From NCBI GenBank assembly GCA_964016885.1, contig OZ024743.1, positions 320,478,001 through 320,542,000 on the forward strand: a DNA stretch of 64,000 nt. The letters run 5' to 3'. The stretch's first letter is position 1. Each line of letters begins with the position of its first letter. The stretch is from Eledone cirrhosa (Eukaryota). Of the stretch, positions 6,779-64,000 are shown piece after piece. A program made the position numbers and the translations under genes. The notes below the pieces were generated by a model. That model made no database searches, was not told the origin of the DNA, and saw only the letters and a list, made by a program, of their open reading frames with translations.

Positions 6779-7726
6779 TATAAGGAAAATAAATCGAAAA
6801 TGCAAATGGAATCTTTTTAAGAATATTTATTTGTTTCCTTTACCGGTTTCACAGTTCTTATGCTTTTCAAAAGTAGAATTGAGATGGAGAGTTTGTGGTT
6901 TTTCTCAGATGTTACTTCTGTTTTATGTGGAAAAAAGTGACTCGAATTGCTAGTTTTCTTTCTTATATTTTGGTTGGTTGATGACTGTCACGTGAATAAG
7001 TACATCAACTTTCGCGCCAGTCGCGTTTGAGGGTTCTTTAGTGTCATTTTCACTTTAAAAAAGTGGCTCAAATTATTGTTTTTATAAGTGTAATTTGGTT
7101 GGTTGATGACTGCCACGTGAATAAGTATATTAAATTTCGTTTCAAACAAAATATAATGTACAAGAAAAGGGAAGAGGAGAAAACGTTCAGTGAGCATGGC
7201 TAATGTGCTGAGGTATCAAAATTCAGACTTTCTATTGAAATAAATTGAATGTTTGTGTCGAGAGCGGTGGTTGTGGCGGCAGAGTAGAAAATAGAGATAT
7301 ATATTTTTATTTGTGTGCGGATGTGTGTTTGTGTGTATGTATGTGTGTAATGAGTGTGTGTGTGTATGTGTGTGTGTGTGTAGGAAAATGATTCTATTAG
7401 TTGAAATGGAGAAAGATGTTATGTTTGTGTGTGTATGTGTGCGGTATGGTGAGCATGTTAAGGTGTTAAAATATTAACGTATGTTGAAGTATATTCAGCT
7501 CTTGTCCTTTATTTTCGAATATAAAATAGGGTGTTATGTGTGTGTATGTATGTGTCTGTGTGGATGGTTAGCATGTTATGGTGTTAATATATTAATGTAT
7601 ATTAAACCATATTTAATTCTGGTCTATATTTTTGAATAAACATATTTTCCTTATTTATTCGTATTTGGTCTGTTGTATTGTCAGTGCGAAGATAGAGTGG
7701 GAAGACTTGGAATTTGGGTGTCTTAT
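6779..7726 (-). repeat. 3' pseudo-LTR of PLE-A
   Basis: Near-identical to 11040-11997; includes the GIY-YIG C-terminus and 3' UTR. Confidence 0.9.
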
Positions 7727-10700
7727 CTCTTGCGCATATGTCTAGATGTACACTGAGTGGTCTTGAGGTATAGTCTCGTAATTGTTGACGATGAATTGTC
7801 ATTCTGTTTCTGAGCATGAGTTTAGTTTGACCTATATAATCTTCATTGCATCCTTTACATTTAATGGCATAAAGTACATTTTTTGATGTGCAAGTGAAGT
7901 GACTTTTCACAACAAAATGTTGTCCTGATTGAAATGTATACATGGTACCTTCAATGAGGAGAGTACAAGTTTCGTAATTAGAGGGACCACACTTTTTGAC
8001 AGTTGGTTGTGGGGTTGTGGTGGGTAAATTGGCATTGGTGAGTAATGTTTTTTAGTGATTTAGGTTTTCTTTTGCTTTTGATTATTTTGTGTTTCAGGTA
8101 CTTTTTTCATTCTTGGGTCTTGTCGCAATAGTGGGATGTTCTTGTGAATAATTTTATATGCTTCCGTATTTCTTGGGTTGTGTGTTGAGATATATGATAG
8201 AATATTGGACGTACCTTAAATTTGTTTTTGTTTTCGTAATTCATCAATGACTATTGCTTTAGCCCTTTCTATTCCCTTATCTGATAGTAACGGTGGGTAC
8301 TGTCTTTCGAGCAGAATTTCCTTTAATTCTTGAAGTCTTTTATTTCGCGTTTCATAATTGGAGACAATTGTGCAAATTCTTCTTGCTATATTAAAAGGGG
8401 CGTTCGTCTTCGTGTGCTTTGGATGGCTGGAGGTGAAGAGCAGGTATTTCTTGGAATCTGTTAGTTTTTAATGGATGTCAGTTTCAATATTTGTGTCTTT
8501 TTTTATGATTAAGATGTCCAGAAATGGGAGTTGGTCTTGACTGTATTCCATTGTAAATTGGATGTGGTTATTGATGCTGTTAATTAAATTGTTGGAATCA
8601 TTTAGTTGGTCGAGTGTGTGAGACCATAGAATAAGACAGTCATCCAAGTTGCGTTTCCAATTCTCTGATAAATATTTATGGAAGTTCAAGACGTATTTTG
8701 ATTTGGAATTACAAGTATGCCATGACTAAGTTAGCGTAAGTTGGAACGACTTTTGTACCCATCGCAGTCCCCGATATTTGTTTGTAAATGCTGCCATCAA
8801 AATCAAAAAAGTTGTTCTGTGAAATAAATTTTAATCCCTCGGTGATGAAGCCTTTTTCTATTCTGTCCGGTATCTCATTGGGGAATTTTTCTAGCCAGAA
8901 TCCTATTGCTTCTAGTCCGTGTTGGTGTGGGATCGTCGTGTAGAGATTCACTACATCGAAAGACACAATAATAGTGTCGTTGCTGACATGTTTGGGGAGG
9001 TGGTTTAAGAGGTCCAAGTCGTCTCTTACAAGGCTTAGTATGTGTTTGAGAATTGGTTTTAGTAGTATGTCTATAAAGTTGCTCCTTCTGTGAGTTTCAC
9101 ATTGTGTGCCCGCTACATTTGGTCTTAATTTAAGATCAGTGGGGTGTTGTGTGTTTACACAGGTTGAGGTGGATTCTTTACAGGCATCGTTAATTGTTTT
9201 ACACTTGTGGATCTTCGGAAGTCCGTAAAGGTTGATGGTTTTGTATTCAAATGTGTTACATAATCGCGTTCCTTTTTAGTTCTCTTTCTGGTATTGACAA
9301 ATGAATGCGTTTAATCTGGTCACCTTTTTTGATTGCTGGTAGTTGTTTACTTTTTCATAGTAGTTAGTGTCTTGTAAGAGAGAGAATATAGAATTTTTAT
9401 ACTGTTCAGCATCCATAATGATGACAGTACTTCCCTTGTACGCTTCCTTAATTACAATGTCAATATTGTTTTTTTAATGTATGGATAATTTCCCATTCCC
9501 TTCGGCTAGTGTTGGGTTTGGGTTTAGATTGTGGTAGTTCATGGTATGGGAAAGTTGATACGTGGTTACAACATTTGTCAAGAACTCTGTTCCTGCCCTT
9601 TGTTGGGTTGTAGCTGCTTTTATTCAGTACAATTGATTGTTCGTTAGTCTCCTTATCAAAACATTCCTCTGTTTGACTAATTTTCTACAGAAGTCTGAAA
9701 TATCATCGTTTATCTCATTGAGGTTAGAGTATTGAGGTGTTTGTGTGAATTTCAGTCTCTTTGAGAGAATTTTAATTTCTTGGGCTGAGAAGTTTGAAAT
9801 TGAAAGATTGGCTATTTTCGGTTTTTCTAAATCGGTTTGTGCCACCAGATGTCGTGGGTCCTGTAGCCTTGGTCTAAAAAATGATTTTTCTGAAATGTTT
9901 ATTCATGTGTATTACTATATCTAATGGCATTTTCCCTGTTGTTGTGTGGTCTTGTATAGAAGTTTCGGACGTATTGAGGTTCGGTTTGTTGATGGTCCGG
10001 ATTCTAATTTTTGTTCCGTTGTGTGGGTTGGAATCTATGATTTTAGAACAGGTTCTGTGTGGTTTGGGGTCTACGGTTTTGGAACAGGTTTTGTGTGGGA
10101 TGTGATCAGCGGATCGGGTCCTGTCTTGTGTGAAGGGGCATTTAGGTTTTTTTTAGTAAGGTTAAAGTTTTGTCTATGGATTCTTGGATTATCGTCATAT
10201 TTTTTCTGGGGGTATGTTGGATATTTTGTTGCTTTTTTTGTTGTTTGTTATGAGTTTGGTGTGTGAATTTCATTTTGTTTTAAAAATGGGGTACCTGTAT
10301 GGTGTTTGTTTTTGAAAATAATTTCGTAGTTGTTGAAGCAAGTGGCGTTTTTATTCCCATCGTTAAAAGGATGTTGGTTCTTCGTCCTCACAATTTTCTT
10401 ACCAAAGTTTGAAGCTTTTTTTCATAGAGTAGGCCTTCGGAGTGCGTTGAGATTTCGGTTTCCATCTGTTGGTCGAGTAACTTGAATTTTTCTTCGTTGG
10501 AGTTGGCTCTTAACCGCAACAGTTCTATTTCTATTTTAAACTTTTCTAAGGCCATCTTTTCCCTAAGATTTGTTGGTTTTCTGGTTCATTCGGGATGGGT
10601 TTTATTTGGAGTTTTTTGGGGAGGATGATTGGGGTAGAGTTTAGCCACGTTTCATATATATCTACTTTTCCATTATTTTTTAGGAGATTCCAAAAGACAA

Positions 10701-11039
10701 ATTTGCGAGCTGTGAGCTTTTGAGTCCATATATGGTTTAGGGTGTTTTTCAATGAGTGGACTTCTCGTAGATGGGTTCTAATGGTTGTTCCAGATTTTGG
10801 AGCATTGCTGTTTCAATTATTTTGATCAGTTTGGTATATGTTGGAGTAATATCCGTCTCTTGGGTATTTTCTCCTTTTTCATGGAGTCCTTTTTTGTAGA
10901 TATGTATTTGGTCTACTTTGTTCATTTAAGATGTCCTTGTTGAGACTTTGGTGGCATTGTCGGTCCCCGTGTGGTGGGTGTGAGTAAGAAAGTGAGTGGG
11001 GGGTAAAGAAAAAAGTGAGATGTCCTACACGAGTGAAAG

Positions 11040-30261: not shown

Positions 30262-30297
<36 letters not shown>

Positions 30298-30389
30298 TAT
30301 ATTGTTATTGTTATTCCTTGAATCTCAGTCATTGATGTTGGTTAACTGGAAAGTCCGTTGGATTGAATATCAAGCCACTACCTGCAGCC

Positions 30390-33782: not shown

Positions 33783-34351
33783 TTCACCGTTATTCGAACT
33801 GTTTATGTTCGATATTTAAACACTCTTATCGAGGATTGGCGAATGTATGTTTACATAGCCATCTGTGGATCCGCCATCCCACTTGGCCCTTGTGTGGCAT
33901 TATCACCACGCTGTATACGGACACACATAAACAAACAAACACACGGGCAGAAAGGGCCCCAAAAATGAATAAGCATAAGTTTCATTGTAATGTAGTATTC
34001 GAATGTCTGACTTAGTTTTTGTTTTTTAAGTTTTACTTTTTCCCCCCTCTTCTCTGTCCGTCCGCCTGCTTCTCTCTTCATTCTTATTTTCTTTACGTTT
34101 CTGGGGTTTCTTTTTTTGTTTTTGTTTTTCTCTGTTTTTCTCGTTTTTTACTGTTGTTGCTGTGCTGCTTTTGTTGTTTGTTTTTTCTTTTTTCTCTTGA
34201 GTCTATCTATATATTTTGATGCCTTCCTCTTTGTTAGTAGTAGGAATTCTATAATGTGGAAGTGGTAGCCAGCAGAGACTGGCGGCGTTGGCGATACTGA
34301 GACAGTGGTGGTGGTGATGTCGATACCGAGGCAGTGGTGGCGGTGATGCGA

Positions 34352-34997: not shown

Positions 34998-35162
34998 TTA
35001 TAACAATATATTTTGGGTCCGAATTTTTTTTGGGCTGAAGCCGGGTGCTTTACGTAGCATTTGTACTAAGAGTTGTTATTTCACAAATGATTTAAATATG
35101 TTAAAAATTCAAAACTTACGGGAGCGATTTCATGACCTCCGTCACCTCGTGCGTCTTCTTCC

Positions 35163-35163
35163 C

Positions 35164-35234
<71 letters not shown>

Positions 35235-35245
35235 GTTATTACTAT
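35163..35245. repeat. (TTA)n tract; similar tracts separate every array member (~20827, 26650, 30262, 38180, 40677, 46442, 47160, 53219)
   Basis: Direct read. Confidence 0.95.
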
Positions 35246-35246
35246 T

Positions 35247-38180: not shown

Positions 38181-38203
38181 ATTATTATTATTATTATTAT
38201 TAA

Positions 38204-38237
<34 letters not shown>

Positions 38238-38239
38238 GT

Positions 38240-40692: not shown

Positions 40693-43600
40693 GGCCGCAC
40701 ATGTGTGAAGACAGTACAAATCTGCGGGGGAAAAGGTTCGTAACTTTAGACTGTTTTAAAGTGTCATTTTTTTGTATTTTCTTGTCGTTAACGAAACTTA
40801 AGGTACACATCTTGATTTAAAGAGAAGGATACCTCTCAATATTCGGGCTTTAAGCCCGAATATTCAGATTTATTTTTAAAAACTTCGAAAAAAAATCACT
40901 TCCCCACCAAAAGAAAATTATGGAAATGTTCGACCTTGAAACGGTAAACAACGTTCAGGTCAAAAGTTTAACGGCAGCCACTGTAGATTTCACCACGACT
41001 ACGACGACTACAGTCATGCCTGTCATCCACTCTACTGAATGTGAAGGCAAAACTCAACCTTCTGTGATAGCAGCAGTATCATCTGAAAACGACATCACCA
41101 CCACCACCACCACCACCACCACCACCACAACAACAACAACAACAACAACTCAGAGCAATAATGACAATAACACCGACAGCTTCAATGTAAACAAGGATGG
41201 CGGTGGCAACACCAATAACAACAGCAAGAATGACAACAACAACAATAAGAGCATCAGAAACACCACATTTGCTGCAGCAGCAGCAAAAACAAAGCGCTTA
41301 TTGAATATTGATATTGATATTAGCGATAAAGACGAACAGTTGGCCAAAGCGTGGAGGTTAATTAAACGGGAGAAGTCCTGGGCAAACCTGACCATCCCGG
41401 ACGAGGCAATAGCGGCCATGCAAAGGAGGACGGTGTTCTTTCGATGTATTTCGGTGCAGACACGAAAAGTGGAACTTGCGAGCCAAGCAGAGGTAGAGGC
41501 TGCTTTGGAGTACATCGGAAGTAACATAGAGTACAAAGCAAGAGGCAAACAATTCGGTACCATCTCGGTACTGTTCAAAACCGAGGCCCTCGCTATTAAG
41601 CACTCGGTGAACCCCTGCAGAACGGAACGCATTATCATGCATCCGTCCTATATGGGTAAAAGGACAGTGAAGGTACGCATTCCCAGCATCCCACCAGGAA
41701 TGAACATATGGTGGCTGCTGGGATGCGTAATCGAGGAGGGGACAGACACTACCCTCCTGGACATCAAAAGGACAGAGAGAGAGGACTGGTCCGGAATGGA
41801 TTTGGAGATTCTTCTCCAAATGAAACCGGAGGATATGAATAACATCCCGGATTTTGCCCGCCTGCAGGACGGGCCAACAATCCAACTAATGATTGACGGA
41901 AGAAGGCAACGCTGCTTCGTCTGCGGGGAAGCAACGCATCTTCAAGCCTTCTGCCCTCAGCGCAAAAATGCAGGGGGTCGCAAACCTCCTTTGTTGCCAA
42001 CACCAGTGTCAGCACGGAAAGCTGCACCACCAGCACCACCAAAACCAACATCAACAAAAACACGGACACCAACATCAAAATCAGCCGGATCACCACCAAC
42101 ACCAAAACCAATCCAAGGAGAAAACGAGGAAAGCTCTCCCACTCCCCCCCCCCAATTATACACATAGACAAAACAATAAACGCACACACAGACACAGAGA
42201 CACTCACAGACACAGACCCTTTGTCTGCCAGCAGCGAAGATGAAGGAAAACCCAAAAGTGCAAAAAAACAGCACTAACGCAAACACTTCCCCAATAACAT
42301 AATCACCAACAGCAACATCGAGACCACCTCCACAATCCCCGAAACGCAAACAACCTAAACAAACACAAGTACAAACATAGACATACCCGAAACAACACCA
42401 CCAAAACCATCGCCACCACCTTCACCAAAACGAAAACAAATAAAACTACACCAACAAAATGTTAAAAACTTCGTGCTTGTCAGAAGGGCCAACGATAAAC
42501 TGATGGCCCTCTTAGCGCGAAGCGAGGACATTCAAACAGAGGGGGAGATTTTTGACATGAGCACATTTTGCGTGCCAGAAGATTTGCTTCTGGTCCGAAT
42601 GTCACTCAATTCCTTCAAAGAAATTCGAGAGAGCTTTTCTCAAGACGTGGGAACCCCGAATGTGAAACCCACATCAAGACTTTTAAAGGGGTTCCCAAAA
42701 GAAATCCCACCAACCATGGAGGTCGAACTACCCGACCTTCACAAGACCCGGGAGGTAAGTAAACCTTCCCTCTCTCTCTCTTAGCTTACCAATATGGCCA
42801 TATTAAGAGTAGGAAGTTTAAATGTTCGCGGCCTGGGGTCACCCTGGAAGCAGGGTCGCCTGCTCAACGACCTCCGGTCGCTGGAAATGGATGTGATTGC
42901 CGTAAGCGAGACCAGAATTTCCTACACGCGCGCACTAGCCCCCATTTTCGACGACTATCAGATCTTCACATCGGTTAGCAGGCCGAGAATGGGGGATGGG
43001 GTGGCAGTGTTGTTAGGGAAAGGACTGGATCTCGAGGTAAGGTCGATCTTCCGGGACGCGGACGGTAAGTTGGTGGTCTTGGATGTGAGCAGTAGCGAAG
43101 GTGGTGCCTTTAGACTGCTGGCCGTCTACGCCCCTACAGGGGCCAGACGACCTGACTTCTTTAGGCGCCTGGATACCTTTCTGGGTACGTCTCGCCCTTT
43201 ACTGTTAGAAGGGGGACTGGAATGGCATCTTAGACGCACGCTGGGATTGTGTGGGAGTAGCCGATAGGAGCAGGGGGTGCAAAAGCCTCAAGCACCTACT
43301 CAGCCAGTTCCAAATGTCTGACAGGTATAGACTAGATTTCCCCAATGTGCCAGTATGGACATGGACCAACCGAATGGGGTCATCTAGATCGTATATAGAC
43401 AGGATCTTCATTAGGAAAATAGATAGAAATAGTGTGGGCTGTCCACTTTTTAAAACGGTCGCCTATTCAGATCACAAATGTTTGATCTGTACGGTCGACC
43501 TAAATAAAACGCGTAGGTTAGGACCGGGTTACTGGAAGCTGAACATGTCATTTCCGGCACGTAAGGCTTACAGGGACCGAGTCAACAATTTAGTTAAGCA

Positions 43601-46441
43601 AAAGTTGACAGGGGGGATCATCAACAACAGATGGTGGGAGGCTCTCAAAAGAGAGATTAGAGTAACTTCGATAGAGTTCAGCAAAGAACTAGCGTTAGAG
43701 AAAAATAGAAAGGTGGGGAGCTGGTAGATAAGTTAGACGAGCCTATTTGGCGTGCTAACGGCGAGAATGGCATTAGACCATTTCTTCAATGCCAGACACA
43801 AAGGTTGCATTTTCAGAGCTAAGGCGCGTGCGCTGAGAAACGAGGGAACTAAACCTGTTCGATGGGCCCGCGTGGCGGAGGCGCAGCGTGGTAATAAAAC
43901 CACAATTCGGTCTAGGCGGACCGAGACGGACACGAGATAAACGATTCCAAGCGGATGTGTGAGGCCTTTCGCCAGCACTTTGCTCGGTTGTTCAGGGAGA
44001 GTGGCGAGTCAGAGAGAGTAGCGGATTTCAGTCCCTACCTTGACGGCTTGCCGCGCATCTCGATGGTCGACGCTGAGCGCTGCGAAAGGCCGATTACTTC
44101 AGCCGAAATTCAGGACGCCCTTGTCGGCTGCATGAGGCGCAAGTCACCCGGTTTGGATGGCCTGCCCTACGAGCTTTACGTAAATATGCCAGACTTGTTC
44201 TCCGAACTCCTCAAAGCACTCTACTGCAACTGGCAGCAGAATGGGAGTATTCCCAGTTCTGTCAGCAGGGGAGTGGTGACGCTGATAAGGAAAGACGAGA
44301 ACAAGAGGGATACATTAGACAACTACTTCAGGCCCATAACTCTGCTCAACACAAAGTTTAAGATGTTGGTCAAGGAGATTGGCGCTTGTCGTGGAGGATT
44401 TGGTTGGGGAGGCGCAAACTTGCGCCATCCCAGCCAGGTCCATACACGACAATCTCCACCTCATGCGATACATCATAGAGAGGGTAGGGTGTAAACCTGG
44501 CTCCGGTGAGGCACTGATCAATTTAGATCAATCGAAAGCATTCGATAGGGTCGACCATCGATATCTGGAGTTTGTCCTCAAAGCAGCTGGCTTCGGCCCC
44601 GTCTTCAGAAGCTGGATCGTTGCAATGCACAGCGGCACCTGCTCGATGGTCAAAATGTATGGCCACTTCTCGGAACCGATTCAGGGCTCCCGATCGGTCC
44701 GTCAAGGGTGCCCTCTCTCTTCCCTTCTGTACGTATTGACTCTCGAGCCTTTACTGTGGAAGCTGGAGCTGTGGCAGGGCATCCCACTCGAACCGGGACG
44801 TGGAAAGGCGGTGTCGGCTTATGCGGACGACATCACCGTGATGGTGTCGAACACCTCAGAAATCGAGGTGGTCGGCACCTTATTGAAGGAATATGAAAGG
44901 TTGGCAGGAGCCAAACTTAACCCGGAAAAATCGGTGGGCTTGCAGCTCGGTACCTGGAGAGGCAAGCCCATGCCGTCCAACAGCGTCGTGGGGCGCTGGA
45001 CGGACGGACCGGTAAAGTTGCTCGGGGTTTGGTTCGGACCAGTCCTCCAGGTGGAAAAGAATTGGGACGAGGTAACGAGTAGAGTAGCCAGTCTCACCCA
45101 AAAATGGGCTGGGAGGAAGCTATCACTGAAAGGTCGCGCGGAGGTGGCGAATGCGTACATCGCGTCCGTCATCTACTACAGCCTAACCGTCGTGCCTTGC
45201 CCCCGTCCGCGCCTCGTCAAGTTGGAACGGCTCCTCTTCAAATTCTTGTGGAGGGAACAAGTTCCGTTGGTGAGGTGGTCCATCTGCTGCCAGCACCCTC
45301 TACGCGGAGGGCTGGGCATGCCGTGGCTAATGATGCGCAGACATGCGTTGAGGCTTCGACATCTCCAGATATTCTGCCTCAATGGTGAACAGGTGTGGTC
45401 GCCGTTTATCAGACGGGCCTTTCCGCAGCTCATTTCTTTGACTGAGCTGCAGTCCTGGGTCAAGAAGAGACCGAGACTGGGTGACTGGCACCTGGAATGT
45501 TGCCAGGCACTCACTGCTCTCTACCAAGCGGGCAATGCGATCAGTGGAACTTCCACTCTCGAGTTCTATAGAGGATTAGTGGTGTGCAAGTGCGATGACG
45601 CACTCGGAGAAGCTTTGGGCCTCGACGAAGTCGAACTGACCAGTCTGTACCGGAGGACTTTTGAGCCGAGGACGATGGATAATTTCCAGAAATCCCTCGC
45701 TTGGCAGTGCTACCGGGGGGCACTGCCGGTTCGGGATAAATTCTACAGGCACGGAAGTGCTGTCAGACGGACCTGCCCAAGATGCGCACGGAACGACGAA
45801 ACCGTTCTGCACGCACTTGTCCAATGTCCGTGCATTACTGACTTGTGGAGTTATGTCGAACAGCTACTGTCGCGTGTGGAACGAATCCGGCTATCGGCCG
45901 AGTCCATAGTGAAGATCGAGCCGCCACCTTCCTAAGGTCAGGAAGAGCAGGAAATTTTCCTCTGTCTGGTGGCAGTTGCGAAAGAGATTATATGATGGAC
46001 CAGGTTGAAAGGACTAAAGACAGACACTTTTCTCTTCGGCCAATTCCTCATCAACTTATTCAAGTTTCACCTGGAAAGGAGGGTGAGGGTGGAGAGAGAA
46101 GTGCTGCCCCCCAGTACATTTGCTAAAAGGTGGGTGAATGTGGCGAGAATGGCTCGTGTGAATGGGCCTACTCTGAGGAGAGGGGTGCTCTCCCTGGGTG
46201 CCCTAGAAGCGCAGGGTGGTTCAGGTTTGGTGGGGTACCCGAATCACCCCAGGGTCGTCCAACCCCTATCGGGGAATTTATTTTGTTATATTTATGCATA
46301 GTTCATTTTATATTTTTATATTTTCATTGTTAAATTAGTCTTGCCATTGTGCACTTTTACTCGACCTTATTGTAAACCCCCACTGTCCCTGTCTTTGTAT
46401 TGTCCCTTACATGTCGGCCCTTGTGGCTAATAAATGAAATC
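40693..46441 (+). mobile_element. Tx1-like LINE (copy D, distinct subfamily): ORF1 40920-42784, ORF2 42794-~46180, disrupted
   Basis: ORF1 CFVCGEATHLQAFC; APE GSLNVRGL; 518-aa RT segment 44379-45935; AATAAA followed by a (TTA) tail. Confidence 0.95.
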
Positions 46442-46450
46442 ATTATTATT

Positions 46451-47158
46451 GCCAGTTCGGGATAAACTCTACAGGCATGGAGGTGCCGTCAGCCGGGCAT
46501 GTCCGAGATGCGCGCAGGGCGACGAAACCGTCCTGCACGCACTCGTCCAGTGTCCGAGCATTGCTGACTTGTGGGTTTATGTCGAACACCTGCTGTCACG
46601 TGTAGGACGGATCCAGCTATCAGCTGAGTCCATCGTGAGGATTGCCCCACCCCCTTCCTTTAGCCTGGAAGGGCAGGCAGTTTTTATCTGTCTGGTGGCC
46701 ATGGCGAAAGAGATAGTATGGTGGACACGTTTGAAAGGGCTGAAGACGAGCACTTACCTCTTCGGTGATGCCCTGATTAACTTTTTCAAATTTCATTTGA
46801 AAAGGAAAATCAGGGTAGAGAGGGAAGTGCTCTCTTCCCAGCATTTTGTTGAAAGATGGGTGAGAGAAGCAAGTATGGCCCGAATGAATGGGCCTTCTCT
46901 GAGTATGTGTCTGTAAATTAAAGGTGGAAAACTGGGAGAGGGCACTTGCCCTGGTGGTCAGGGCCACTGTGGTCTTTTAATGGGCTTTCTCCACAAATGT
47001 CCCTTGGAAGTCTCCCCCCTATTGGGGAATTTTTCTTTGTTATTTTATTTCAACCTCTGTTTTTTTACACGCAGAAATGCCCATTTGTACCGTCCTGTAT
47101 TGTCCTGTACTGTCCTTAATGTCTACTTTATGTGAACCCTTGTGGTTAATAAAGAAAA

Positions 47159-47160
<2 letters not shown>
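46451..47160 (+). mobile_element. 5'-truncated Tx1 3' fragment (C/E subfamily) in the tail of copy D
   Basis: Nearly identical to 25939-26650; begins directly after ATTATTATT and ends in (TTA)n. Confidence 0.93.
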
Positions 47161-47210
<50 letters not shown>

Positions 47211-50200
47211 GAATGCCATAGTTGACGGAGGCTCGGTTCTGTAAGGTATAGTAATTTTTAACCGCTATAACAATTGTAAATTGTTTAAAACTTGAACCAA
47301 ATTGTAGATAAAAACACCCTCCTCTTCGTGAGAGGGGTCTTTCTGCTCGTTATTTGGCCCTTCGGGGTTAAATAACCGCTTATTGGGGTTTTGTACCCAA
47401 TATTCATTTTAAACCGTAAAAAAAAACATGGCTGCAAAAAAGAATTTTCACAAGTCACTCCGACACTTTCCGTCTTCTTCTTCCTCAATCGTCATTGCAT
47501 CAGAGAGAAGATTGTCTCTCTCCCTCACTTCTCTAAATGTGGTGTCGCCTCTTTCGCCAGCGATGCCATTAAAGAAAAGTATAGTTTCTGGAAGCTTTCA
47601 CCAAGAGAACGGGCATACCATGGAACATTTCTCCACGACGACGACGACGAAAAATGTGTGCGGTAAATACGGAAAGCCATTTCATTCGTCTGACGTCATG
47701 AAGAATAGCAGCAGCAACAGTGACAAGGAAAACACTAGTAGCAGCCGCAACAACATCAGCAGTAGCATAAACAACAACAGCAGCAGCAGCAACAGCAACT
47801 ACAACAGCAACAGCAGCACCAACAACAACCACAGCAACAGCGGCGGCGACGGTCGTAGTACCTGCAGCAACAACAAAAGTAACAGCAGCTCTGACGACGA
47901 CAACAACAACAACAAGAAAGAAAAACCAATCTCGTTTGCAGGTATCGCAAAGAACCTGGAAACCATCCTTATAACAACTGAGAAATTACAGGAAGCAAAG
48001 AAGATGGTGATGAAAACCGGACACCGAGCAATCTGCAAGGCAGCCGAAAAACTTTTCGAAACCCAACAGCACTATACGGTCACGTACCGTACAGTAAACA
48101 CAAAATCACGTAGGGTTGAAAGAGCCACAGACGCTCAAATACAAAAAGCCTTAGGGTCTGTGTGGCAGCGGAAAACGTATATCACCCGAGGCAAGAAATA
48201 TGGCACCGTGGACGTACTTTTTGCCACAGCCCAGGAGGCAAAGGCTCAATCCCTAGTGACCCTAAGGAGCGAGGAAATGGTGTTGGTGCCCTCCTACTGC
48301 GGGCAAAAATTGCGAGGGTCAAACTGACCCCCCCCCCCGGATGGCCCCTTCTTCGCTGGCCGCATCTGTCCTCGTCGGAATCGAGGACAAAACAACTGTA
48401 CTGCAAGTACAGAAAAAAGTACGAGAAGATTGGGTCGGCACCTCCATTGACATGTTAATTCAAACCAGCCATCGAAGCTATCCCGGATGTGATAGACTTC
48501 GATAACGGCACTCAACTTCCCATAAGTGTTGAGGGCAAACGCCCGAAATGTTTTCGCTGTGGGTCGAAGACTCACCTCAGGGCCTTCTGCAATGAGAAGA
48601 CCCTCGAGAAAGGAGAAAACCCCCTCCTTCCGAAACCGGCTCCACTGCTACCAGCAACAGGACATGCGGCATGCAGGAAGGATAGGTCCGTGGTACCCAT
48701 ACCCACGCCACGGAAATCAAGAACAGCAGCAGTAGTGGAAGTATTAACAACAACAACAGTAATAGCAACTGCAGCTGGCAACAGAGACTCCACTGCAATC
48801 ATCACCAACAAGAACAAGTGAAAGAGTGGAGCTGGTACCCCTCCCCGACCTCACAGAATCGGACATAGAGTGTAAGGTGGGAGAGGGATGGCAAAAGGTC
48901 GCAAGAAGGCACAAACGCAGAGGCAGCGCATCGTCGCCTTCGAAAAGGGAGTGAAGAAATAAAAAAAGGGTAAAGGCTACTGCAAAGAGACTTACAGCAG
49001 CGACACCACCAGCACCATCACCACCCACACTAGCACCACCATCACCACCCACACTAGCACCACCATCACCACCGGCGGCAACCCCACCACCAACAATAAC
49101 AACAACACCTTCAACACCACCACCACAAGCACAAACATCGCAAACACAACAATAAAACACACACACCCAGTAACAACGACAAGAAAATAGCAGAATCACA
49201 CCCCACCCCCAGAAAAAGAAATGCACAGCAATAAATACACACAACAAGAAACTAATGACTTACATAATTGAACACACAGACATTTCACAGCACGACTACA
49301 TAATACCAGCACCAATCAAAACACCAACGAACATAAGACTGGTAAGAATATCACAGAAACAATCCACAAACATTAAAATAAGGAGGCACACTCAACCGGA
49401 GAGTATATTCGGATATACTCACAGAAGAGCCGACGACCAGCCGAAGGGACGATTCAACGGTGCCTTCACCAGACGATCAAGTGAAAAGGGATGGAGAAAC
49501 CATCCTTCCTCTACGAGAAGTAAGGTAAGTGGTCTATCCCATCTTTTCCACTCCATTTCAACATGACCTCACTCAGAATAGGCAGCATAAATGCGCGTGG
49601 CTTGGGGTCGTCATGGAAGCAGGGCCACCTGCTCAACGACCTCAGGTCACTAAACATAGATGTAGTGGCCATCAGCGAAACCAGAACCTCCGAAGCACGG
49701 GCCTCCGCACCGATCTGCGGCGGCTAAGATGTGTACGCATCTCCCAGCCATCCTAGATCGGGGGGTGGAGCTACTGTGCTTTTTCGGAGAGGTTGGATCT
49801 CGCCATACGGGCCATCTTCCTGGACCCAGAAGGTAGTATGTTGGTGGTGCTGGACGTGACCAGTGCAGAAGAGCAAGCTTTCAGCCTAGTGGCCGTCAAT
49901 GCCCCGACAGAAGCAGGACGGCCTGTTTTCTTCCGGCATCTGGAGACATTTCTAACTATTTGGAGTTAGTGGGCGACTGGAACAGGATCTTAGATGCACG
50001 CTGGCAGTGTGTGGGATTAGCGGATAGGGGAGGAGGGTGCAAGAGCCTCATCAAGCTGCTCAGGCGTTTTGAATTGTTTGACAGGTACCGATTGGATTTC
50101 CCGAATATGCCAATGTGGACTTGGACAAACCGTATCGAGTAATCCAGATCATATATAGATAGAGTATTTTGTAGGGAAATAGATAGGTCTAGCATAGGCG

Positions 50201-53200
50201 GTCCACAATTCAAGATAGTCAGCTACACGGACGACAAATTCGTAATCTGTGTGCTTGACTTAGATAGGCTTCATAGACGAGGACCCGGCTACTGGAAGCT
50301 AAACGCCTCCTTACCAGCGCGCAAGGCCTACAGAGACCGGATTAGCGAACTAGTTAAGCGGGCGTTGACGGGGCCATCGCCAACAAAAAGTGGTGGTTTG
50401 CTCTTAAAAGAGCGAGTAGAATAGAGTCCATTGGGTTTAGTAAGGCATTAGCAATGGAGAAAAATAGAGCAGAGGGAGAACTAGTTAGAAAATTAGACGA
50501 GGCGCTTAGCAAAGGCATCTCGCCCGAGGTACTAGCGACGAAATTGGCCTTTGACATATTCTTCAATGCAAAGCACGAAGGCTGCGTTGTCAGAGCTAAG
50601 GTGCGTGCTCTCAGACACGAGGGGACAAAAGCCGTTCAATGGGCCCGAGTGTTGGATGCGCATCGTGGCAACAAAGCCACGATCCGGTCTTTGGTGGACC
50701 ATGACGGGCGCATGCTACTCGATCCCAGGCAAATGTGCGAAGCTTTTCAGCGATATTTCGCACAGCTGTTCGGGGGCAGCGGCGGGCCGGAACGAGGGAT
50801 GGACTTTAGTGTCTACCTCGACGGACTGCCGCGGCTCTCGGCCACTGAGGCAGAGCGTTGCGAAAAGCCGATAACAGCCGCTGAAGTACGGGAGGCAATG
50901 ACTGGCTGCACAAGCGGTAAATGCCTGATTTGGATGGTCTGCCCTATGAACTTTACGTACAGATGCCAGACTTGTTCGGAGGCCTCTTGGCGGACGTCTA
51001 CTGCAACTGGCAACAGAACGGGAGAATTCCCACCTCTGTGAGCCGAGGAGCTGTGGCGCTGCTGAGGAAGGATCCGAACAACGGGGATAACAGATAATTT
51101 CAGGCCCATAACTCTGCTAAACACAGAGTTCAAGATTTTGGCCAAAGTGCTAGCAAAGAGGTTGGCGCTTGTCGTTGGTGGTCTGGTGGGAGAGGCACAG
51201 ACATGCGCCATTCCCGACAGATCCATCCACGACAACCTCCACCTCATGCGATACATCGTAGAGAGGGTAGCTAGGGAACCTGGCACGGGTGGGTCCTTGA
51301 TCAATTTAGATCAGTCGAAAGCTTTCGATAGTGTCGACCATCGTTACCTAGCGGCAGTCCTGAGGGCGGCTGGCTTTCGGCCCGTCTTCAGAGGCTGGAT
51401 CGCTGCCATGCACAGCGATATCTGCTCTGTGGTGAGAGTGAACGGTCACCTTTCGGAACCGTTCAACTACATGCGCTCGGTCCGCCAACGATGTCCCCTC
51501 TCGTCCCTATTGTACGTATTGACTCTCGAGCCATTACTGCACAAACTGGAGATGTTGAGGGGGTCCCGCGCGAACTAGGATGCGGAAGATCCGTGTCAGC
51601 ATATGCCGACGATGTCACCGTAGTGGTGTCGAACGCCAAACACATCGAGGCGATCGGCACTACACTAAGAGAATACGAAGCGGTGACAGGAGCAATGATC
51701 AACCAGGAAAAGTCAGTGGGCCTGCAGCTCGGCACATGGAGAGGCAGGTCCATGCCGTCCAACAGCGTGGTCGGGCGCTGGACGGACGGACCGGTTAAAT
51801 TGCTAGGGATCTGGTTCGGTCCAGACATCCAGACGGACAAAAGCTGGGACGAGGTGTGGCAGGGTGGCTTCTGTCACCCAGAAATGGGCCGAGAGGAAGC
51901 TATCTCTGAAAAGTCGAGCTGAGGTGGCTAACGCATACATCGCGTCCGTCATCTACTACCGCCTGACCGTCGTACCTTGTCCTAAGCCCCGCCTGACTGC
52001 GCTGGAGCGTTTGCTCTTTCGCTTCTTGTGGAAGGGACGCGCTCCGATGGTCAGGCGGTCCATCTGCTGTCAACACCCGCTACGTGGAGGGCTGGGCATG
52101 CCGTGGCTATTGATGCGCAGACACGCGCTCAGGCTACGACATCTCCACCTCTTCCTCGACGGTGATCAGGTGTGGTCGCCGTTTGCTAGACGCGTCTTTC
52201 CCCAGCTCGTCTCCTTGACGGAGCTGCAGTCCTGGGTCAAGCGAAGACCAAGAGGGATCGCTTGGAGATTGGAATGTCTTCAGGCGCTCACATCCCTCGA
52301 CCAATCGGGCAATGTGATCGGTGGAAACTCCACCTCGGCGTTCTATATAGGATTAGTGGAGGGGAAGAGCGACGACGTACTTGGGGAAACTCTAGTCTTC
52401 GACGAAAATTAACTAGCTAATCTCTTCGGAAGAACTTTCGGGCCGGGGCCTATGGACAACTTCCAGAAATCCCTGGCTTGGCAGTGCTACCGAGGAGCTT
52501 TTCCATTTCGGGATAAACGCTACAGATGTGGAGGTGCCGTCAGCCGGGCATGTCCGAGATGCGCGCAGGGCTACTAAACCGTCCTGCATACACTCGTCCA
52601 GTGTCCGAGCATTGCTGACTCGTGGGTTTATGTCGAACACCTGCTGTCGCGTGTAGGGCGGATCCGGCTATCAGCTGAGTCCATCAGGAGGATTGCCCCG
52701 CCCTCCTCCTTTAGCCGGGAAGGGCAGGCAGTTTTTATCTGTCTGGTGGCCATGGCGAAAGAGATAGTATGGTGGACACGTTTGAAAGGGCTGAATACGA
52801 GCACTTACCTCTTCGGTGATGCCCTGATTAACTTTTTCAAATTTCATTTGAAAAGTATAATCAGGGTAGAGAGGGAAGTGCTTTCTTCCCAGCACTTTGT
52901 TGAAAGATGGGTTGAGAGAAGCAAGAATGGCCCGAGTGAATGGGCCTACTCTGAGTATGTGTCTGTAAATTAAAGGTGGAAAACTGGGAGAGGGCACTTG
53001 CCCTGGTGGTCAGGGTCACTGTGGCCTTTTAATGGGCTTTCTCCACAAATGTCCCTTGGAAGACTCCCCCCTATTGGGGAATTTTTAATTGTTTTTTTTC
53101 TGTTACATCCTCTGTTTTTTTTTTTACACGCAGACATGCCCATTTGTACCGTCCTGTCTTGTCCTGTACTGTCCTTAATGTCTACTTTATGTAAACCCTT

Positions 53201-53797: not shown

Positions 53798-53834
<37 letters not shown>

Positions 53835-53945
53835 TAGCCATTTGACACACATCCCTGCTAACCATTATCACAACATCGAACACCTTACTACTACTACTAC
53901 TACACACACACACACACACATATTTGTTGTGAAAGAGTCATTTCT

Positions 53946-54193
53946 CAGTCTTGGCGCAAAATCAATTTTTTATTCACATGACCTCTACCGACCAATCAAA
54001 ATTGTTTTGACCACAAGAATTTTTGCAAACACCAAGTAGCGCTGGAGCCACTTTTTTAACATAAAAACAGTCTTGGCGCAAAATCAATTTTTTACATTCA
54101 CATGACCTCTACCGACCAATCAAAATTGTTTTGACCACAAGAATTTTTGCAACACAAAAGTAGCGCTGGGGCCACTTTTTTAACATAAAAACA
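53946..54193 (+). repeat. 122-bp tandem module x2 in the 5' pLTR of PLE-B
   Basis: Units start at 53946 and 54068. Confidence 0.92.
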
Positions 54194-54427
54194 GGTAGAA
54201 TTCCAAAAACTAATCAGATCAGAGCAAACAACACGGACACTCTATCTCAAAATTATTTTTGAAAAGCATTTAGAAATGCGCAACCGGTAAAAACTTAAAA
54301 ACTTAAAACCACAACTGAATACTAACCCATACAATTACTAATACTCTTTTATTCCTAATTAAACCATTTTTCAACTGTGAACAATTTGTCAGCATTTTCT
54401 ATTCCGTTTACCAATATATAATAACTT

Positions 54428-55792
54428 GTGTGTTACACCTCTATTCTTTTAACTATCATATCCTCACACGAGATACAGAAAAGGCCAACAAAAACGGATA
54501 CACCCCTCATCAACACAAATGGAGTGATCCTACAGGAACTCAAGAAAATCAACACCAACCTATCTTTGCTGGTCGACAAACTTGACTCCACAAATAAGGA
54601 AACCGCCACCGGATACAAACCCTCCGAAATCGGCGACAAACTCCAAAACCTTTGCGATACTATCCAAACTATGTTCACTACTACCAACCCAGGAAAAATC
54701 AACGAAGAACCATGTTAGATTGATTCATACAAAATGAAAATTCGAACAATTCCAAAATGCAACAAACCCCTCAGAGACTGAAAGTTCTCATTCTGGAAGA
54801 TGATACAAAATGACAACAAAGCAGCGATATATGAAAAATGGCTTTACTCAACCCCTCTAACTCTCCCCCGTAAACTACAAATAATGTCCATTCCAAATGA
54901 ACCCGAACCTCAAAGACACCTTAGGGAAAGAATTGCATTGGAAAAAATGAAGACAGAAATTGAACTTCTTAAACTGAGGGCCCAGACAAATGAGGAAAAA
55001 ATCAAAACCATCGATGAAGAGATCCTCCTGGAAATCAACAACAAAACTGAAGGCCCCAAGGTAGAGAAGAACTCCAAATTATGGAAAGGGGACTGCAACA
55101 GAGAAGAACTGAAATCCCTTCAACGCTGGGAAAAAAGTGCTGCTTGGTTCCTACACTAGGAATCGACTTTTCAAACGAATTACACCTCCAATAACCCGTT
55201 CATAAAAATAGGAAAACCCATAACTGAACCGCACAACAACTTCTCAAACCCCCAAGCCACTAACAAACGAAGAAGGAAGCACCACACCGAAGATGAACTT
55301 GCCAACATCGCTACCATAATAAGGAACAAAAACCCAAGAAATCATCTCCCCCAGAATGACATTTACAACTTTCCCCCTTCAAGGAGACACCATACCAAAT
55401 CACTCAACTACTACGCGGATGCCTCATCGTCAAACATAGGGAAAAGATACCACCACCTTGATAGATGTAACAACTTCCCCGCTTCAAGGGGACAGCAAGG
55501 TAATTACCATTTTCTCAACTCTCGCTTCCACAATACACAACAAACCCACACCACACGATACAACCAACAACGTAGGCCACTTAAATCACCACAATACAAC
55601 ATGGCACATAGAAACACACACCCATACTCGCAGTACAGGAATACCCTATTCAATCTACAACCACCAACCCGAACCACGTTTTACAACAACAAGGAATATA
55701 ACAAACACAGGAGACCACTTAACATCAGCAGATAACCCCTCTACCCCAACCATCTTTTAGACACAGCACACAGATACAGGCAAACAAAATAA
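54428..55792 (+). pseudogene. Putative ORF1 of PLE-B (coiled-coil-like plus hydrophilic low-complexity tail), one frame with four internal stops
   Basis: Manual translation: stops at 54716, 54779, 55157 and 55733, no frameshift needed. IYEKWLYSTPLTLPRKLQIMSIPNEPEPQ matches PLE-A IYETWLNSTPIILPKKLQIKPIPNEPENQ. Start codon is uncertain. Confidence 0.65.
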
Positions 55793-55929
55793 CACAAGAC
55801 AGGGAGGAGAAACCGATTGTAATAAAAATTATCAATCTTACTAGTGCAGAACCAACACCCAACCTTATCAACTTACTCTCCAAAGGTCTTAAATTCACAC
55901 CGACCCCACTACGTCCTAACTACTATGAA

Positions 55930-58077
55930 ATGAAGGAAGACATCACAGACTTCTGTAGAAAGTTACGACTTAGTGAACAACTATTCGACCAGTACAATGA
56001 GGATGAATCATTAGCCAGAAATAGAAGCAATTACACCCCTTCAAAAGGTAGAAATAAAATCCTGGACGAATTCTGTGAACACATCACAAACTTCCCTTAC
56101 CAACACTTGCACAGACAAAAACACAAGCCAAACCTCAACAAGAAAGAATGGGAAGAATTAAATAGATTAAAAACCGACAGAACCATTACAATTAAAGAGG
56201 CTGATAAAGGGAGTACAGTAGTCCTAATGGAGACAGAATTATATATCAACTTAGCGCTCTCCACTTTGGAAAACGAAACATACTACGAAAAGGCTGAACA
56301 CTACAATCAACAGAAAATTATGAGAAACCTAAAAACTCTAATCAACCAATACAAAGAAGGACTCACTAACAAGGAATTCAGCTTCATCACAGACTTCACA
56401 AGTAAATCCAGCCTTTTCTACGGTATCCCTAAAGTACATAAAAGCGAATTAATAAGTAAGGCATGCAAGGAAGCCACAGACATAGTCATCAATGTCCCCT
56501 CACCCAATGATATCAAATTAAGACCTATAATAGCAGGCCCAGCTTGCGAAACTCACCGCCTTAGCAACTTCATTGATACCCTTCTCAAACCCTTTCTCAA
56601 ACACATCAAAAGCTATATAAGGGACGACCTAGATATGCTCAATCACCTCCCTTATATGCCACTTTCTGAACAAACCCTACTAGTGACGTTCGATGTAGTC
56701 AACCTATACTCCAACATCCCCCACAACCTAGGAATAGAAGCTATCCAATTCTGGCTGGATAATTTCCACAATGAACTCCCACAACGCATCAAAAAAGAAT
56801 TCGTGATAGAGGGACTCAAATTTATCTTGGAGAACAATTACTTCGTTTTCAATACCAAACCCTACAGGCAGAAATCTGGGACCGCTATGGGAACGAAAAC
56901 AGCCCCCACTTATGCCAACCTAGTCATGGGATACCTGGAAATCACCCTCTACACTAAAGTCCTAAACAAATTTGGAAACACCCTCCACTTACACATTGAA
57001 AGGAACTGGAAGCGATATCTAGATGACTGCTTCATCCTTTGGCACGAAAATATTGAAAAACTTAAAGAATTTCACACCCTTATAGATGGCCTCAACACGA
57101 ATATTAACTTCACGATGGAATACAGCCATCAACAACTCCCCTTCCTCGACATCCTCATTAAGATCCATAACAAAAAAATAGAAACAGACATAAACTACAA
57201 GCCCACAGACTCCAAGCAATATCTCCCTTTCAACTCTTGCCACCCTAGACACGTTAAAATTAATATTCCCTACAACTTATCCAAGAGAATCTGTACTATA
57301 ATCTCCAATAAAAACACCTGCTACTTACGGCTACAAGAACTAAAGGACACACTCATAGGCAGGGACTACCCTGCATCACTAATTGACAATGGAATCCAAC
57401 GTGCCCTAAAACTCAGTACCCAGGACCTTAGACAACCTAAAGTAAATCAACCGAAACTAAAAGCTCTTCCATACATCTCCACACACAACCCCCTCAACAA
57501 TGAGGCCTTTGACACCATCCTCCAGAACATCCCTGTGTTGAAAAAGGACCATAGAATGAACCAAATCCTACGAACACACGATATCATAAAGAGCAAAAGA
57601 CAATCCAAGTCAATGAAAAACATCCTAACACATGCCAAAGTACTGCCAACCACAACAACGAAACCCACAGTAAAAAAATGCGATAGACCCAACTGTGGCA
57701 TTTGCATCAACCTAATAGAGGGTTCGGAATTCTATTTCAAAGAAGGACAACGTTTTATAGTAAAACACAATTTCACATGTGCATCGGAAAATCTAATATA
57801 TGTATTAACTTGCTCAGGTTGTCGAGAACAATACATAGGTCAGACCAAAAACAGCATCCGCCAACACATGACTGTCCATAGATCCCAAATTAAAATACGG
57901 GAATACAGGAAAATACCACTGAGTGAAAACATTGATACCTGTGCCGCCCCAAATCATCCCAACTTCAGAATCTTTCCCCTCTACAAATTTAAAGTTAATG
58001 CCACCCACACCCAGCGCATCAGCAAGGAATCTTACTTCATTAACAAATACGGACCCCGTCTAAACACTTCTCCCTAA
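55930..58077 (+). CDS. PLE reverse transcriptase + Cys linker + GIY-YIG endonuclease (frame open from 55702)
   Basis: LSKGLKFTPTP upstream of the first ATG, KEADKG, YGIPKVHK, LRPIIA, FDVVNLYSNIP, GTAMGT, RYLDD, CDRPNCGIC, LIY..YIGQT. The GIY-YIG Arg seen in PLE-A (RNRM) reads RQHM here. Confidence 0.92.
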   Translation: MKEDITDFCRKLRLSEQLFDQYNEDESLARNRSNYTPSKGRNKILDEFCEHITNFPYQHLHRQKHKPNLNKKEWEELNRLKTDRTITIKEADKGSTVVLMETELYINLALSTLENETYYEKAEHYNQQKIMRNLKTLINQYKEGLTNKEFSFITDFTSKSSLFYGIPKVHKSELISKACKEATDIVINVPSPNDIKLRPIIAGPACETHRLSNFIDTLLKPFLKHIKSYIRDDLDMLNHLPYMPLSEQTLLVTFDVVNLYSNIPHNLGIEAIQFWLDNFHNELPQRIKKEFVIEGLKFILENNYFVFNTKPYRQKSGTAMGTKTAPTYANLVMGYLEITLYTKVLNKFGNTLHLHIERNWKRYLDDCFILWHENIEKLKEFHTLIDGLNTNINFTMEYSHQQLPFLDILIKIHNKKIETDINYKPTDSKQYLPFNSCHPRHVKINIPYNLSKRICTIISNKNTCYLRLQELKDTLIGRDYPASLIDNGIQRALKLSTQDLRQPKVNQPKLKALPYISTHNPLNNEAFDTILQNIPVLKKDHRMNQILRTHDIIKSKRQSKSMKNILTHAKVLPTTTTKPTVKKCDRPNCGICINLIEGSEFYFKEGQRFIVKHNFTCASENLIYVLTCSGCREQYIGQTKNSIRQHMTVHRSQIKIREYRKIPLSENIDTCAAPNHPNFRIFPLYKFKVNATHTQRISKESYFINKYGPRLNTSP

Positions 58078-58451: not shown

Positions 58452-58778
58452 CGTACATTAACATACAAAGAGACTTATACACACACACGCACACACACAC
58501 ACACACACACTTCTCCGTATAAGACAAAAGCTGAAAAACATCTTTTGACATGCTATAATACCCCCACTGCTTACAGACACATTCCTACTGATCATCCCTG
58601 CTACCACGAATTACTCTGCTATACACACACACACACACACACACAAACACACACACTACTTATCTTAATAGCCATTTGACACACATCCCTGCTAACCATT
58701 ATCACAACATCAACCACCTTACTACTACTACTACACACACACACACACACACACATTTGTTGTGAAAGAGTCATTTCT

Positions 58779-59146
58779 CAGTCTTGGCGCAAAATCAATT
58801 TTTTATTCACATGACCTCTACCGACTAATCAAAATTGTTTTGACCACAAGAATTTTTGCAAACACCAAGTAGCGCTGGTACCACTTTTTTAACATAAAAA
58901 CAGTCTTGGCGCAAAATCAATTTTTTATTCACATGACCTCTACCAACCAATCAAAATTGTTTTGACCACAAGAATTTTTGCAAACACCAAGTAGCGCTGG
59001 TACCACTTTTTTAACATAAAAACAGTCTTGGCGCAAAATCAATGTTTTATTCACATGAACTCTACCGACCAATCAAAATTGTTTTGACCACAAGAATTTT
59101 TGCAACACCAAAGTAGCGCTGGAGCCACTTTTTTAACATAAAAACA
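58779..59146 (+). repeat. 122-bp tandem module x3 in the 3' pLTR of PLE-B
   Basis: Units start at 58779, 58901 and 59023. Confidence 0.92.
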
Positions 59147-59362
59147 GGTAGAATCCCAAAACTAATCAGATCAGAGCAAACAACACGGACTCTCTATCTC
59201 AAAATTATTTTTGAAAAGCATTTAGAAATTCGCAACCGGTAAAAACTTAAAAACTTAAAACTACAACTGAATACTAACCCATACAATTACTAATACTCTT
59301 TTATTCCTAATTAAACCATTTTTCAACTGTGAACAATTTGTCAGCATTTTCTATTCCGTTCA

Positions 59363-59427
<65 letters not shown>

Positions 59428-63187: not shown

Positions 63188-64000
63188 CTAATGGATACGA
63201 TTTAAACTACCAGTACTTTTAGGTCTATAATAGAAGAAAGAATTAGAAATGGCATGGGGGCAGGAAGAAAATATCTCAGACTTTCTATTAAGCAAAACTT
63301 CCCACCAGAAAATTATAGAGTGGGTCTTTAGGATACAGAGATTACAGAATTTAGTGTGTGTTGATAGGTTATTAGAGCGTGCTACTATACGCCAATTAAG
63401 GCTATATGGCATACCAGCCCCTTTAAGATCTCAGATATGGTGTGCTAAAGAAGTAGAGTTCTTAAACTTAACATGCTTAAAATTAGAGATATGAGAATTA
63501 AACCTAGTTTTAAAAGTATTAGATGTGGAGCCTATATATGTGCTATTAGAAGAATTAGTCTTAACTTCACCAGCATAAACAATGTTCCTAGAGAGGCAGT
63601 GACCATTTAAAGGGTAGTTAATACTTACTCTACAGTTACACTTCCGGGTGCTATTGACCGGCTGAATGAGTGATGCATCACTCCTAGGGTTATTATAAGA
63701 ATAGATCTGCTCAGGTGGTAAGGCATTAATGGATCTATCAAGACTAGTAGTACGCAAAGAGGAGTAGCTGTCCCTAAGTTTCCTATTGTTAGTGCTAGCT
63801 AAATGAGAACTAATATTAGGGGTGGTAGAGAATGATAGTTTAATTACATTTTTATTAAAAATACCATGGTATTTATTAGAAGGAGGGAAATGTTTCTCTA
63901 AGATAGAAAAGAAAGACCTAGGCATGTTAGTTAATACTTTATGATCATAAGGCGGGTTAAAATAAGTATTGAGTCTCCTCATATGTCTATCCTTACCAAC
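63188..64000 (-). mobile_element. Penelope-like element (tentatively Nematis-like) linker and GIY-YIG, disrupted; continues off the window; 3' UTR may extend to the HHR at 61528
   Basis: YFNPPY..LEKHFP..IFNKNVIKLSFSTTPN..CNCR..IVY..YIGSTSNTFKTRFNSH..CNLC..LLNRKSEIFSSCPH. Confidence 0.85.

Follow-up and report, generated by a model that had tools for sequence, protein, structure and literature searches.

A programmed −1 frameshift very probably joins an upstream reading frame (ORF1) to the reverse transcriptase (RT) in the intact members of a wide clade of EN+ Penelope-like elements (PLEs), yielding ORF1 and a minor ORF1-RT-endonuclease fusion. Judged from the sequences, the junction between the two frames is real, family-wide, and kept at the nucleotide level. 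ORF1 itself is a real, separate gene family under purifying selection. Two PLE copies, termed elements A and B, lie in the window (the whole stretch of 64,000 nucleotides of Eledone cirrhosa DNA that was analyzed), which is rich in retrotransposons and microsatellites. They share the same layout of ORF1 followed by RT in the −1 frame, and both are dead copies.

Elements A and B

The features of both elements are collected in Table 1. Element B lies between a pair of pseudo-LTRs with (TA)n on both flanks. Its RT matched Pfam RVT_1 just under the cut-off (E 8e-7, 29.4 bits, cut-off 29.6), and the GIY-YIG endonuclease, C-terminal to the RT, was found above the Pfam cut-off. Element B is an EN+ PLE, and the Neptune label of the original prediction is an assignment by its linker and other motifs, next to an RT tree built without named references.

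Table 1. Coordinates of the features of elements A and B in the window
Feature	Position	Strand	Remarks
Element A, RT-endonuclease remnant	7599..9902	-	Stops and frameshifts
Element A, ORF1 remnant	9827..10957	-	M-P-P-K start as in many relatives; several indels
Element A, perfect heptamer T TTT TTA	9875..9881	-	RT frame −1
Element B, left pseudo-LTR	53832..54420	+	Tandem 122-124 nt units, then hammerhead-like block; (TA)n before
Element B, degenerate minimal hammerhead-like motif	54253..54294	+	U3-A8 core variant, identified by eye; copy near 59205-59246
Element B, decayed ORF1	54425..55792	+	Single frame, internal stops, start codon not found
Element B, RT and GIY-YIG endonuclease frame	55723..58077	+	Open over 784 codons, −1 to ORF1, first ATG at 55930
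Element B, slippery-site relic T CTT TTA	55753..55759	+	Family form T TTT TTA
Element B, TAA at codon +11 after the heptamer Leu	55790..55792	+	Ten-codon stop or decayed Trp codon
Element B, next ORF1-frame stops TAA TAA	55820..55825	+	20 codons past F/L-L
Element B, C-x4-C-x2-C linker from RT to endonuclease	57679..57705	+	C-D-R-P-N-C-G-I-C; Neptune/Nematis type
Element B, right pseudo-LTR	58666..59372	+	95-97% identity to left copy; (TA)n after

The upstream region of element B had been described as a single frame from 54428 to 55792, homologous to the corresponding region of element A. One frame does span it, but this frame is not open: it is interrupted by four internal stops (TAG at 54716, TGA at 54779, TAG at 55157, and TAA at 55733), contains no ATG upstream of 54671, and position 54428 is merely the first GTG past the left repeat. 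The match to intact relatives begins near 54485 (tblastn); a helical core extends from ~54734 to 55216, with a low-complexity tail after it. The homology to element A was recovered by tblastn, with amino acid identities of 47% and 60% over 56 and 45 codons.

The C-terminus of this ORF1 reads N-H-L-L-D-T-A-H-R-Y-R-Q-T-K-stop. It has the predicted H-L-L-D ending and a heptamer one mismatch away from the family form, and the predicted stop, a TAA, stands ten codons beyond the Asp. The mismatch affects the P-site codon, where CUU would have to re-pair on UCU, which probably makes it a poor slippery site as it stands. Since the closest kin of element B (P0001, P0003, and P0007) carry a Trp at +11, its stop ten codons on may be a decayed Trp codon; P0001 and P0007 end at 20 codons, the same end point as the TAA TAA of element B. 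A Trp is also found at +11 of the ORF1 frame in element A, whose ORF1 ends 15 codons past F-L, and in locus L002.

The RT frame of element B is offset by −1 as predicted, but it is open from 55723 and not from 55702 (a TAA lies at 55720). Conserved RT sequence (K-I-I-N-L and L-S-K-G-L-K-F-T-P-T-P) does precede the first ATG. The RT carries 11 changes at 90%-conserved columns, compared with 0-7 in 11 relatives, and H736, one of the CCHH columns of the family's endonuclease (C697, C700, H719, and H736), is lost. The frame is free of stops over its whole length, against four stops in 455 codons of ORF1, for which simple arithmetic gives a chance of ~0.02; element B could belong to a lineage that lost ORF1 first.

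Elsewhere in the window, further retroelements were recognized by translation (15530-17000, 21180-26116, 27026-40015, and 40854-52973), which we take to be a PLE-like remnant and several L1/Tx1-like two-ORF elements. An RT element with a nuclease-like motif at its C-terminus is also present, in four tandem copies.

Repeats and hammerhead-like motifs

The tandem 122-124 nt units of the repeats (53902-54190 and 58735-59145; 11190-11400 in element A) contain TGGCGC in each unit, TCAC(A/G)TGAC in most, and CCAAT in element B, presumably resembling E2F, E-box, and CCAAT promoter sites. The hammerhead-like motif of element B is composed of TTGAAAA, a 6-bp stem II, GCAA replacing GAAA, a palindromic CCGG, and TA, and it lies inside the sole block common with the repeat of element A (76 nt, 78%). 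A U3-A8 minimal hammerhead variant has been described (PMC4209133). At the gathering score, Rfam reported no hammerhead in the window; standard hammerhead cores are found in the repeats of L001 and L011. A donor-like CCG/GTAAA in the left repeat was considered as a splice donor and rejected, as it better fits the hammerhead motif. Another standard core (CTGATGA, 4-5-bp stem, GAAA) at 61562-61538 on the minus strand probably belongs to a PLE remnant ending near 63431-64000.

ORF1 as a separate gene family

In a search with the 125-residue core of ORF1, 396 clusters formed at 50% identity were matched; the best 150 of these range from 60 to 541 amino acids, and none is fused to an RT. Conversely, the best 120 of 999 RT relatives range from 557 to 803 amino acids, within a search range of up to 1372. 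No ORF1-RT fusion was found among proteins of 948-2705 amino acids by a profile search, which is a weak one, and an equally negative, likewise weak word-index search compared the ORF1 core with longer proteins. Purifying selection on ORF1 is evident from dN/dS values of 0.16 for L001 versus L011 and 0.18-0.19 for element A versus element B, which are limited to close pairs, as more distant pairs were saturated.

The predicted structure of the homolog P0008 consists of long helices with a confident core (residues ~110-280, pLDDT 89-98) and a disordered tail. Pfam gave no family for ORF1, esterase included, and Foldseek no match to the ORF1 model at E<=0.001. The best fold match (Z 9.3, rmsd 5.4) was below the bar for helical bundles. 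A zinc knuckle is absent from the ORF1 consensus, and no capsid fold was matched in the fold searches. A language-model match to Retrotrans_gag (0.91, 96 of 256 features shared) is weak and serves as a lead only.

Named members of the ORF1 family come from the oyster Pinctada imbricata, and the RT relatives in bivalve-symbiont bins are probably host contigs. Locus scans gave no match in viral contigs and one marginal match (L130) in 380 + 122 bacterial genomes. Dozens of animal-type PLE copies (L076-L127, genome_contigs) lie inside bacterial genome bins and are probably host contamination.

The ORF1-RT junction in relatives

The C-terminal tails were analyzed in the 95 of 150 ORF1 proteins that have a tail of at least 60 residues; the 55 fragments were left out. 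F-L occurs within the last 45 residues in 68 of the 95, compared with a mean of 4.4 and a maximum of 11 in shuffles. None of the 68 has K, E, Q, M, or W, whose codons are unable to end in T, directly ahead of the F (15.3 expected, P=3e-8), as T TTT TT(A/G) predicts. The junction Phe is 90% conserved within an otherwise unalignable tail. H-x-L-D had been put forward as the conserved unit of the junction. This did not hold, as H precedes F-L in 25 of the 68 relatives and D follows it in eight; across the proteins, the unit that is kept reads as a T-ending codon plus F-L. Terminal F-L is absent in 27 of the 95 proteins. In four of them the ending is N-F, F-F, or D-F with ten further residues, compatible at the protein level with other heptamers of the X XXY YYZ type, and several look truncated.

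RT scans gave 127 loci, six of which have an ORF1 profile match; L129 was added as a seventh. The heptamer T TTT TTA is in frame in L001, L002, L005, L008 (junction identified by eye), and L011, and T TTT TTG in L077, with the RT at −1 in all six. L129 also has its RT at −1, but its only heptamer is T TAT TTT (deduced from the two-frame translation) and it has an in-frame Met. An in-frame T TTT TT(A/G) is thus present in six and the −1 offset in all seven outside DNA loci with ORF1. L015 carries T TTT TTG without an ORF1 profile match and falls into the same RT clade (support 100). The −1 frame of L002, L005, and L077 becomes open 0-1 codons ahead of the heptamer. L001 looks intact, with 434 codons of ORF1, 784 codons of RT, and hammerhead cores in its repeats. 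The original prediction had argued that an offset shared by two diverged elements exceeds random decay; two elements alone make a weak case (1 in 3), whereas the family data lie far beyond chance. Neither outcome that the original prediction had named as refuting it, a missing offset in other copies or an ORF1 free of purifying selection between families, was observed, and its interpretation is thereby supported.

Directly after F-L, D-H-N-W is conserved in the ORF1 tails of L001, L011, P0035, P0049, P0090, and P0103, encoded by GAC CAC AAC TGG in both L001 and L011. Such conservation is odd for a disordered tail and may reflect an RNA element or a constraint from the RT frame. In-frame heptamers were also seen upstream of RTs without this ORF1 (L091:4776, T TTT TTA; L082:4713, G GGT TTT; L006:125, A AAA AAC).

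Probable frameshifting at the heptamer

By programmed frameshifting, most ribosomes would finish ORF1 (~400 residues) at its own stop, and a few would slip by −1 on U UUU UU(A/G) to give the rarer ORF1-RT-endonuclease fusion. Slippage at this site is likely, and ORF1 may be made in Gag-like excess over the enzyme and may serve in RNA packaging. What stimulates the slip probably differs between members: some would use a hairpin, and in one large clade the stop of ORF1, ten codons further along, may act as stimulator.

A hairpin beating 25/25 shuffles follows the heptamer in three of the ten junctions folded (L002, L005, and L077); two of the three begin at 2 nt, the tested spacing being 5-9 nt downstream. 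Significant structure is absent in the other seven, and a crude pseudoknot scan of the junctions gave nothing beyond shuffles. Element B is among these seven, in line with the earlier remark that it has no evident stimulatory structure: neither hairpin nor pseudoknot was found 3' of its heptamer. Two features of this copy speak against frameshifting, namely the P-site mismatch and the open RT beside a decayed ORF1, which is odd if the RT needs ORF1.

Spacing of the ORF1 stop

The ten-codon spacing between heptamer and stop is the new element of the present analysis. Exactly ten residues follow F-L in 26 of the 68 proteins, where a geometric null expects two, and fewer than ten in none, where it expects 29. 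The four proteins ending in N-F, F-F, or D-F show the same spacing with what would be other heptamer types. The ten residues of the F-L class are unrelated in sequence (9.7% identity), and Gly is scarcer in the tails of the ten-codon class (0.5 versus 2.1). The last residue is P or T in 11 of the 26 and Q, E, S, L, A, or V in none, a bias noted post hoc. On a quick ORF1 tree the ten-codon label is clustered, with 23 of 27 in one 31-row clade and ten changes. Elsewhere the stop lies one codon (L005) or 12 codons (L001 and L011) after the heptamer. The ten-codon DNA loci (L008, L015, and element B) have no significant hairpin, while the three loci with hairpins have other spacings.

A tentative and rather unlikely reading of this pattern is that, in one large clade, the ORF1 stop stimulates the frameshift via ribosome collision. 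A ribosome paused at the ORF1 stop would hold a trailing ribosome 33 nt behind (A-site to A-site), whose decoding sites would then be occupied by U UUU UUA; no RNA structure would be needed, as their collision would drive the −1 slip. Mouse disomes measure 59-60 and 62-63 nt and monosomes 29-30 nt (PMC7397865); our own subtraction of these published values gives 30 or 33 nt, compared with 33 nt in the elements. If true, the elements would offer a conserved example from nature of collision-programmed frameshifting, with enzyme output tied to ribosome load. The same pattern would arise without collision if +11 is kept for a hydrophobic residue or a start codon in the RT frame, which may be the case. 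The clustering in one clade, the other spacings in L001, L011, and L005, and the Trp at +11 in the closest kin of element B also count against the collision reading. Weak peaks at 20-21 and 30-31 codons were considered as queue periodicity and discarded, the former being explained by an RT motif.

Other routes to the RT

The RT might instead start at its own AUG or a near-cognate codon ~11 codons past the U run, by AUGA termination-reinitiation or leaky scanning, with the U run having another role or serving a second route. We regard this as improbable, though it fares best among the alternatives. A start-type codon at +11 is indicated by two-frame compatibility (P0007/P0315 with P0179/P0300), and the +11 codons are GTG-G in element A and CTG-G in L002. 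P0015/P0182 are compatible with an AUGA overlap, and such overlaps occur in a sister PLE group. The intact RT of element B beside its decaying ORF1 would also suit internal initiation. However, no AUG lies between the heptamer and the conserved RT motif N-L-S in nine of ten junctions, the intact-looking L001 among them, and the +11 stops are TAG in L008 and L015 and TAA in element B, none of them AUGA. AUGA is impossible for five of the 26 last residues in the ten-codon class, near the 6.9 expected by chance. Of 120 RT proteins, 52 are called with a start upstream of N-L-S, and 30 of these have G at +4 (27% background, P=3e-6); yet NTG-A in the overlap is a stop, which alone would inflate G at +4. 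Internal initiation, moreover, leaves F-L unexplained.

Even less probable is that TTTTTTAG acts as a 3' splice acceptor, with splicing dropping the ORF1 tail or all of ORF1 and bringing the RT into frame. A codon starting with G follows F-L in 51 of the 68 proteins, AG follows the U run in eight of ten junctions, and introns are retained in PLEs (PMC8557442). Nevertheless, AG is impossible at the site in 17 of the 68, L077 and L015 read TTTTTTGT, a splice acceptor would need no fixed ORF1 frame, and proteins ending in N-F or D-F have no acceptor at this place.

That F-L is a protein motif, with offset and stop position as by-products of overlapping coding or decay, is largely refuted and deserves very little credence. 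The conserved hydrophobic residues of the RT frame do generate ORF1-frame stops, and the RT motif K-V/I-I-N explains the secondary end point at 20 codons. On the other hand, the codons are TTT TT(A/G) after T in all six outside F-L loci and in element A, the searches (one of them weak) found no in-frame fusion, ORF1 is under purifying selection, and most loci would be left without a way to start the RT. Slippage of RNA polymerase or RT on the run of 6-7 T, adding a base to give the same fusion, is hardly credible, since the run is short for polymerase slippage, which usually needs runs of nine or more, and neither A AAT TTY nor G GGT TTY forms a long homopolymer.

If the programmed −1 frameshift holds, the database RT proteins of the wide clade are mis-started, and biochemistry on the RT alone would miss the natural fusion. 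EN+ PLEs have been described as single-ORF elements, whereas in the wide clade ORF1 stands apart from the RT and the junction resembles that of gag-pol, which offers a handle on PLE particle building and enzyme dose.

Other PLE couplings

A second EN+ PLE clade (WLWD01... contigs; L047, L050, L054, L055, L058-L063, L068-L072, and L074), drawn from one assembly and often with several copies per contig, has an ORF1 of 360-430 amino acids ending in G GGT TT(T/C), with 0-2 codons between this heptamer and the stop, and the RT at −1. A hairpin ~9 nt on is conserved, with 80% of cells paired and two pairs with double changes.

On JGI858J16261 contigs, EN+ PLEs (L018, L021, and L027, with ATGA; L022, L024, L037, and L041 as nearby variants) have an ORF1 of up to 715 amino acids with an RG-rich tail, ending on or beside the RT ATG. 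These overlaps are candidates for termination-reinitiation.

In-frame single-ORF EN+ PLEs also occur among the RT-scan loci. A single-ORF PLE at L017:175-670 has an in-frame N-terminal domain with I-I-P-K-G-L-Q-I-K, resembling I-L-P-R-K-L-Q-I-K in the present ORF1 as well as P-K-G-L in the WLWD group. A common origin of this domain and the two ORF1s is possible; profile comparison of the present ORF1 with that of the G GGT TTT group gave a probability of 0.2%, the alignment being centred on P-R-K-L/P-K-G-L.

Comparison with known systems

In HIV-1 gag-pol, the frameshift takes place on U UUU UUA, with the structural gene first and the enzyme at −1. The present elements have the same heptamer, in many cases with G as the next base, and the same gene order and −1 enzyme frame. 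Unlike HIV-1, they have no conserved stem-loop, and neither a zinc knuckle nor a capsid match was recognized in ORF1.

Athena and Terminon elements reportedly contain an ORF1 frameshift. That an ORF1 frameshift occurs in PLEs as such is already in print: the legend of Fig. 1 of Craig 2021 (PMC8557442) allows for a PLE ORF1 set apart by a frameshift that comes with a pseudoknot. The frameshift PLEs of that legend share with the present elements a helical ORF1 upstream of the RT and joined to it by frameshift. In contrast to these, the present elements bear a C-terminal endonuclease, insert at (TA)n, and gave no pseudoknot in the crude scan. Among the papers searched for a slippery site in Neptune-type elements, only this legend came up.

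Neptune-type EN+ PLEs as described there (PMC8557442) are alike in the C-terminal GIY-YIG, the CX2-5CxxC linker, the pseudo-LTRs, and the (TA)n target; the RT motif G-T-A-M-G...A-P-x-Y-A-N is, by eye, nearest to the two Neptune rows of Fig. S1. Neptune was found to be paraphyletic in the same work, and canonical EN+ PLEs are called single-ORF (Craig 2021, PMC8557442). The present elements differ from the latter in having, upstream and in a different frame, an ORF1 of ~400 amino acids without a Pfam family. An esterase ORF is mentioned for Neptune-like elements in PMC5408684, whereas the ORF1 described here has no Pfam esterase match.

The position of a stop past the slippery site also matters in SARS-CoV-2, in which the 0-frame stop lies five codons on, inside the pseudoknot, and a nearer stop is better (Bhatt 2021, PMC8168617). 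Unlike the spacing found here, the model as outlined for that virus predicts no ten-codon floor. A closer counterpart of the ten-codon class is a set of E. coli reporters in which stalling at a stop codon makes the ribosome behind slip by −1 more often, with a peak at nine codons between A-sites (Smith 2019, PMC6815119). Both systems have a slippery heptad one ribosome length before a stop, without RNA structure. They differ in that the reporters were engineered and peak at nine codons, whereas the present cases are natural animal elements with 11 codons. If functional, the ten-codon class would be a naturally occurring example of what has so far been demonstrated with engineered reporters in bacteria.
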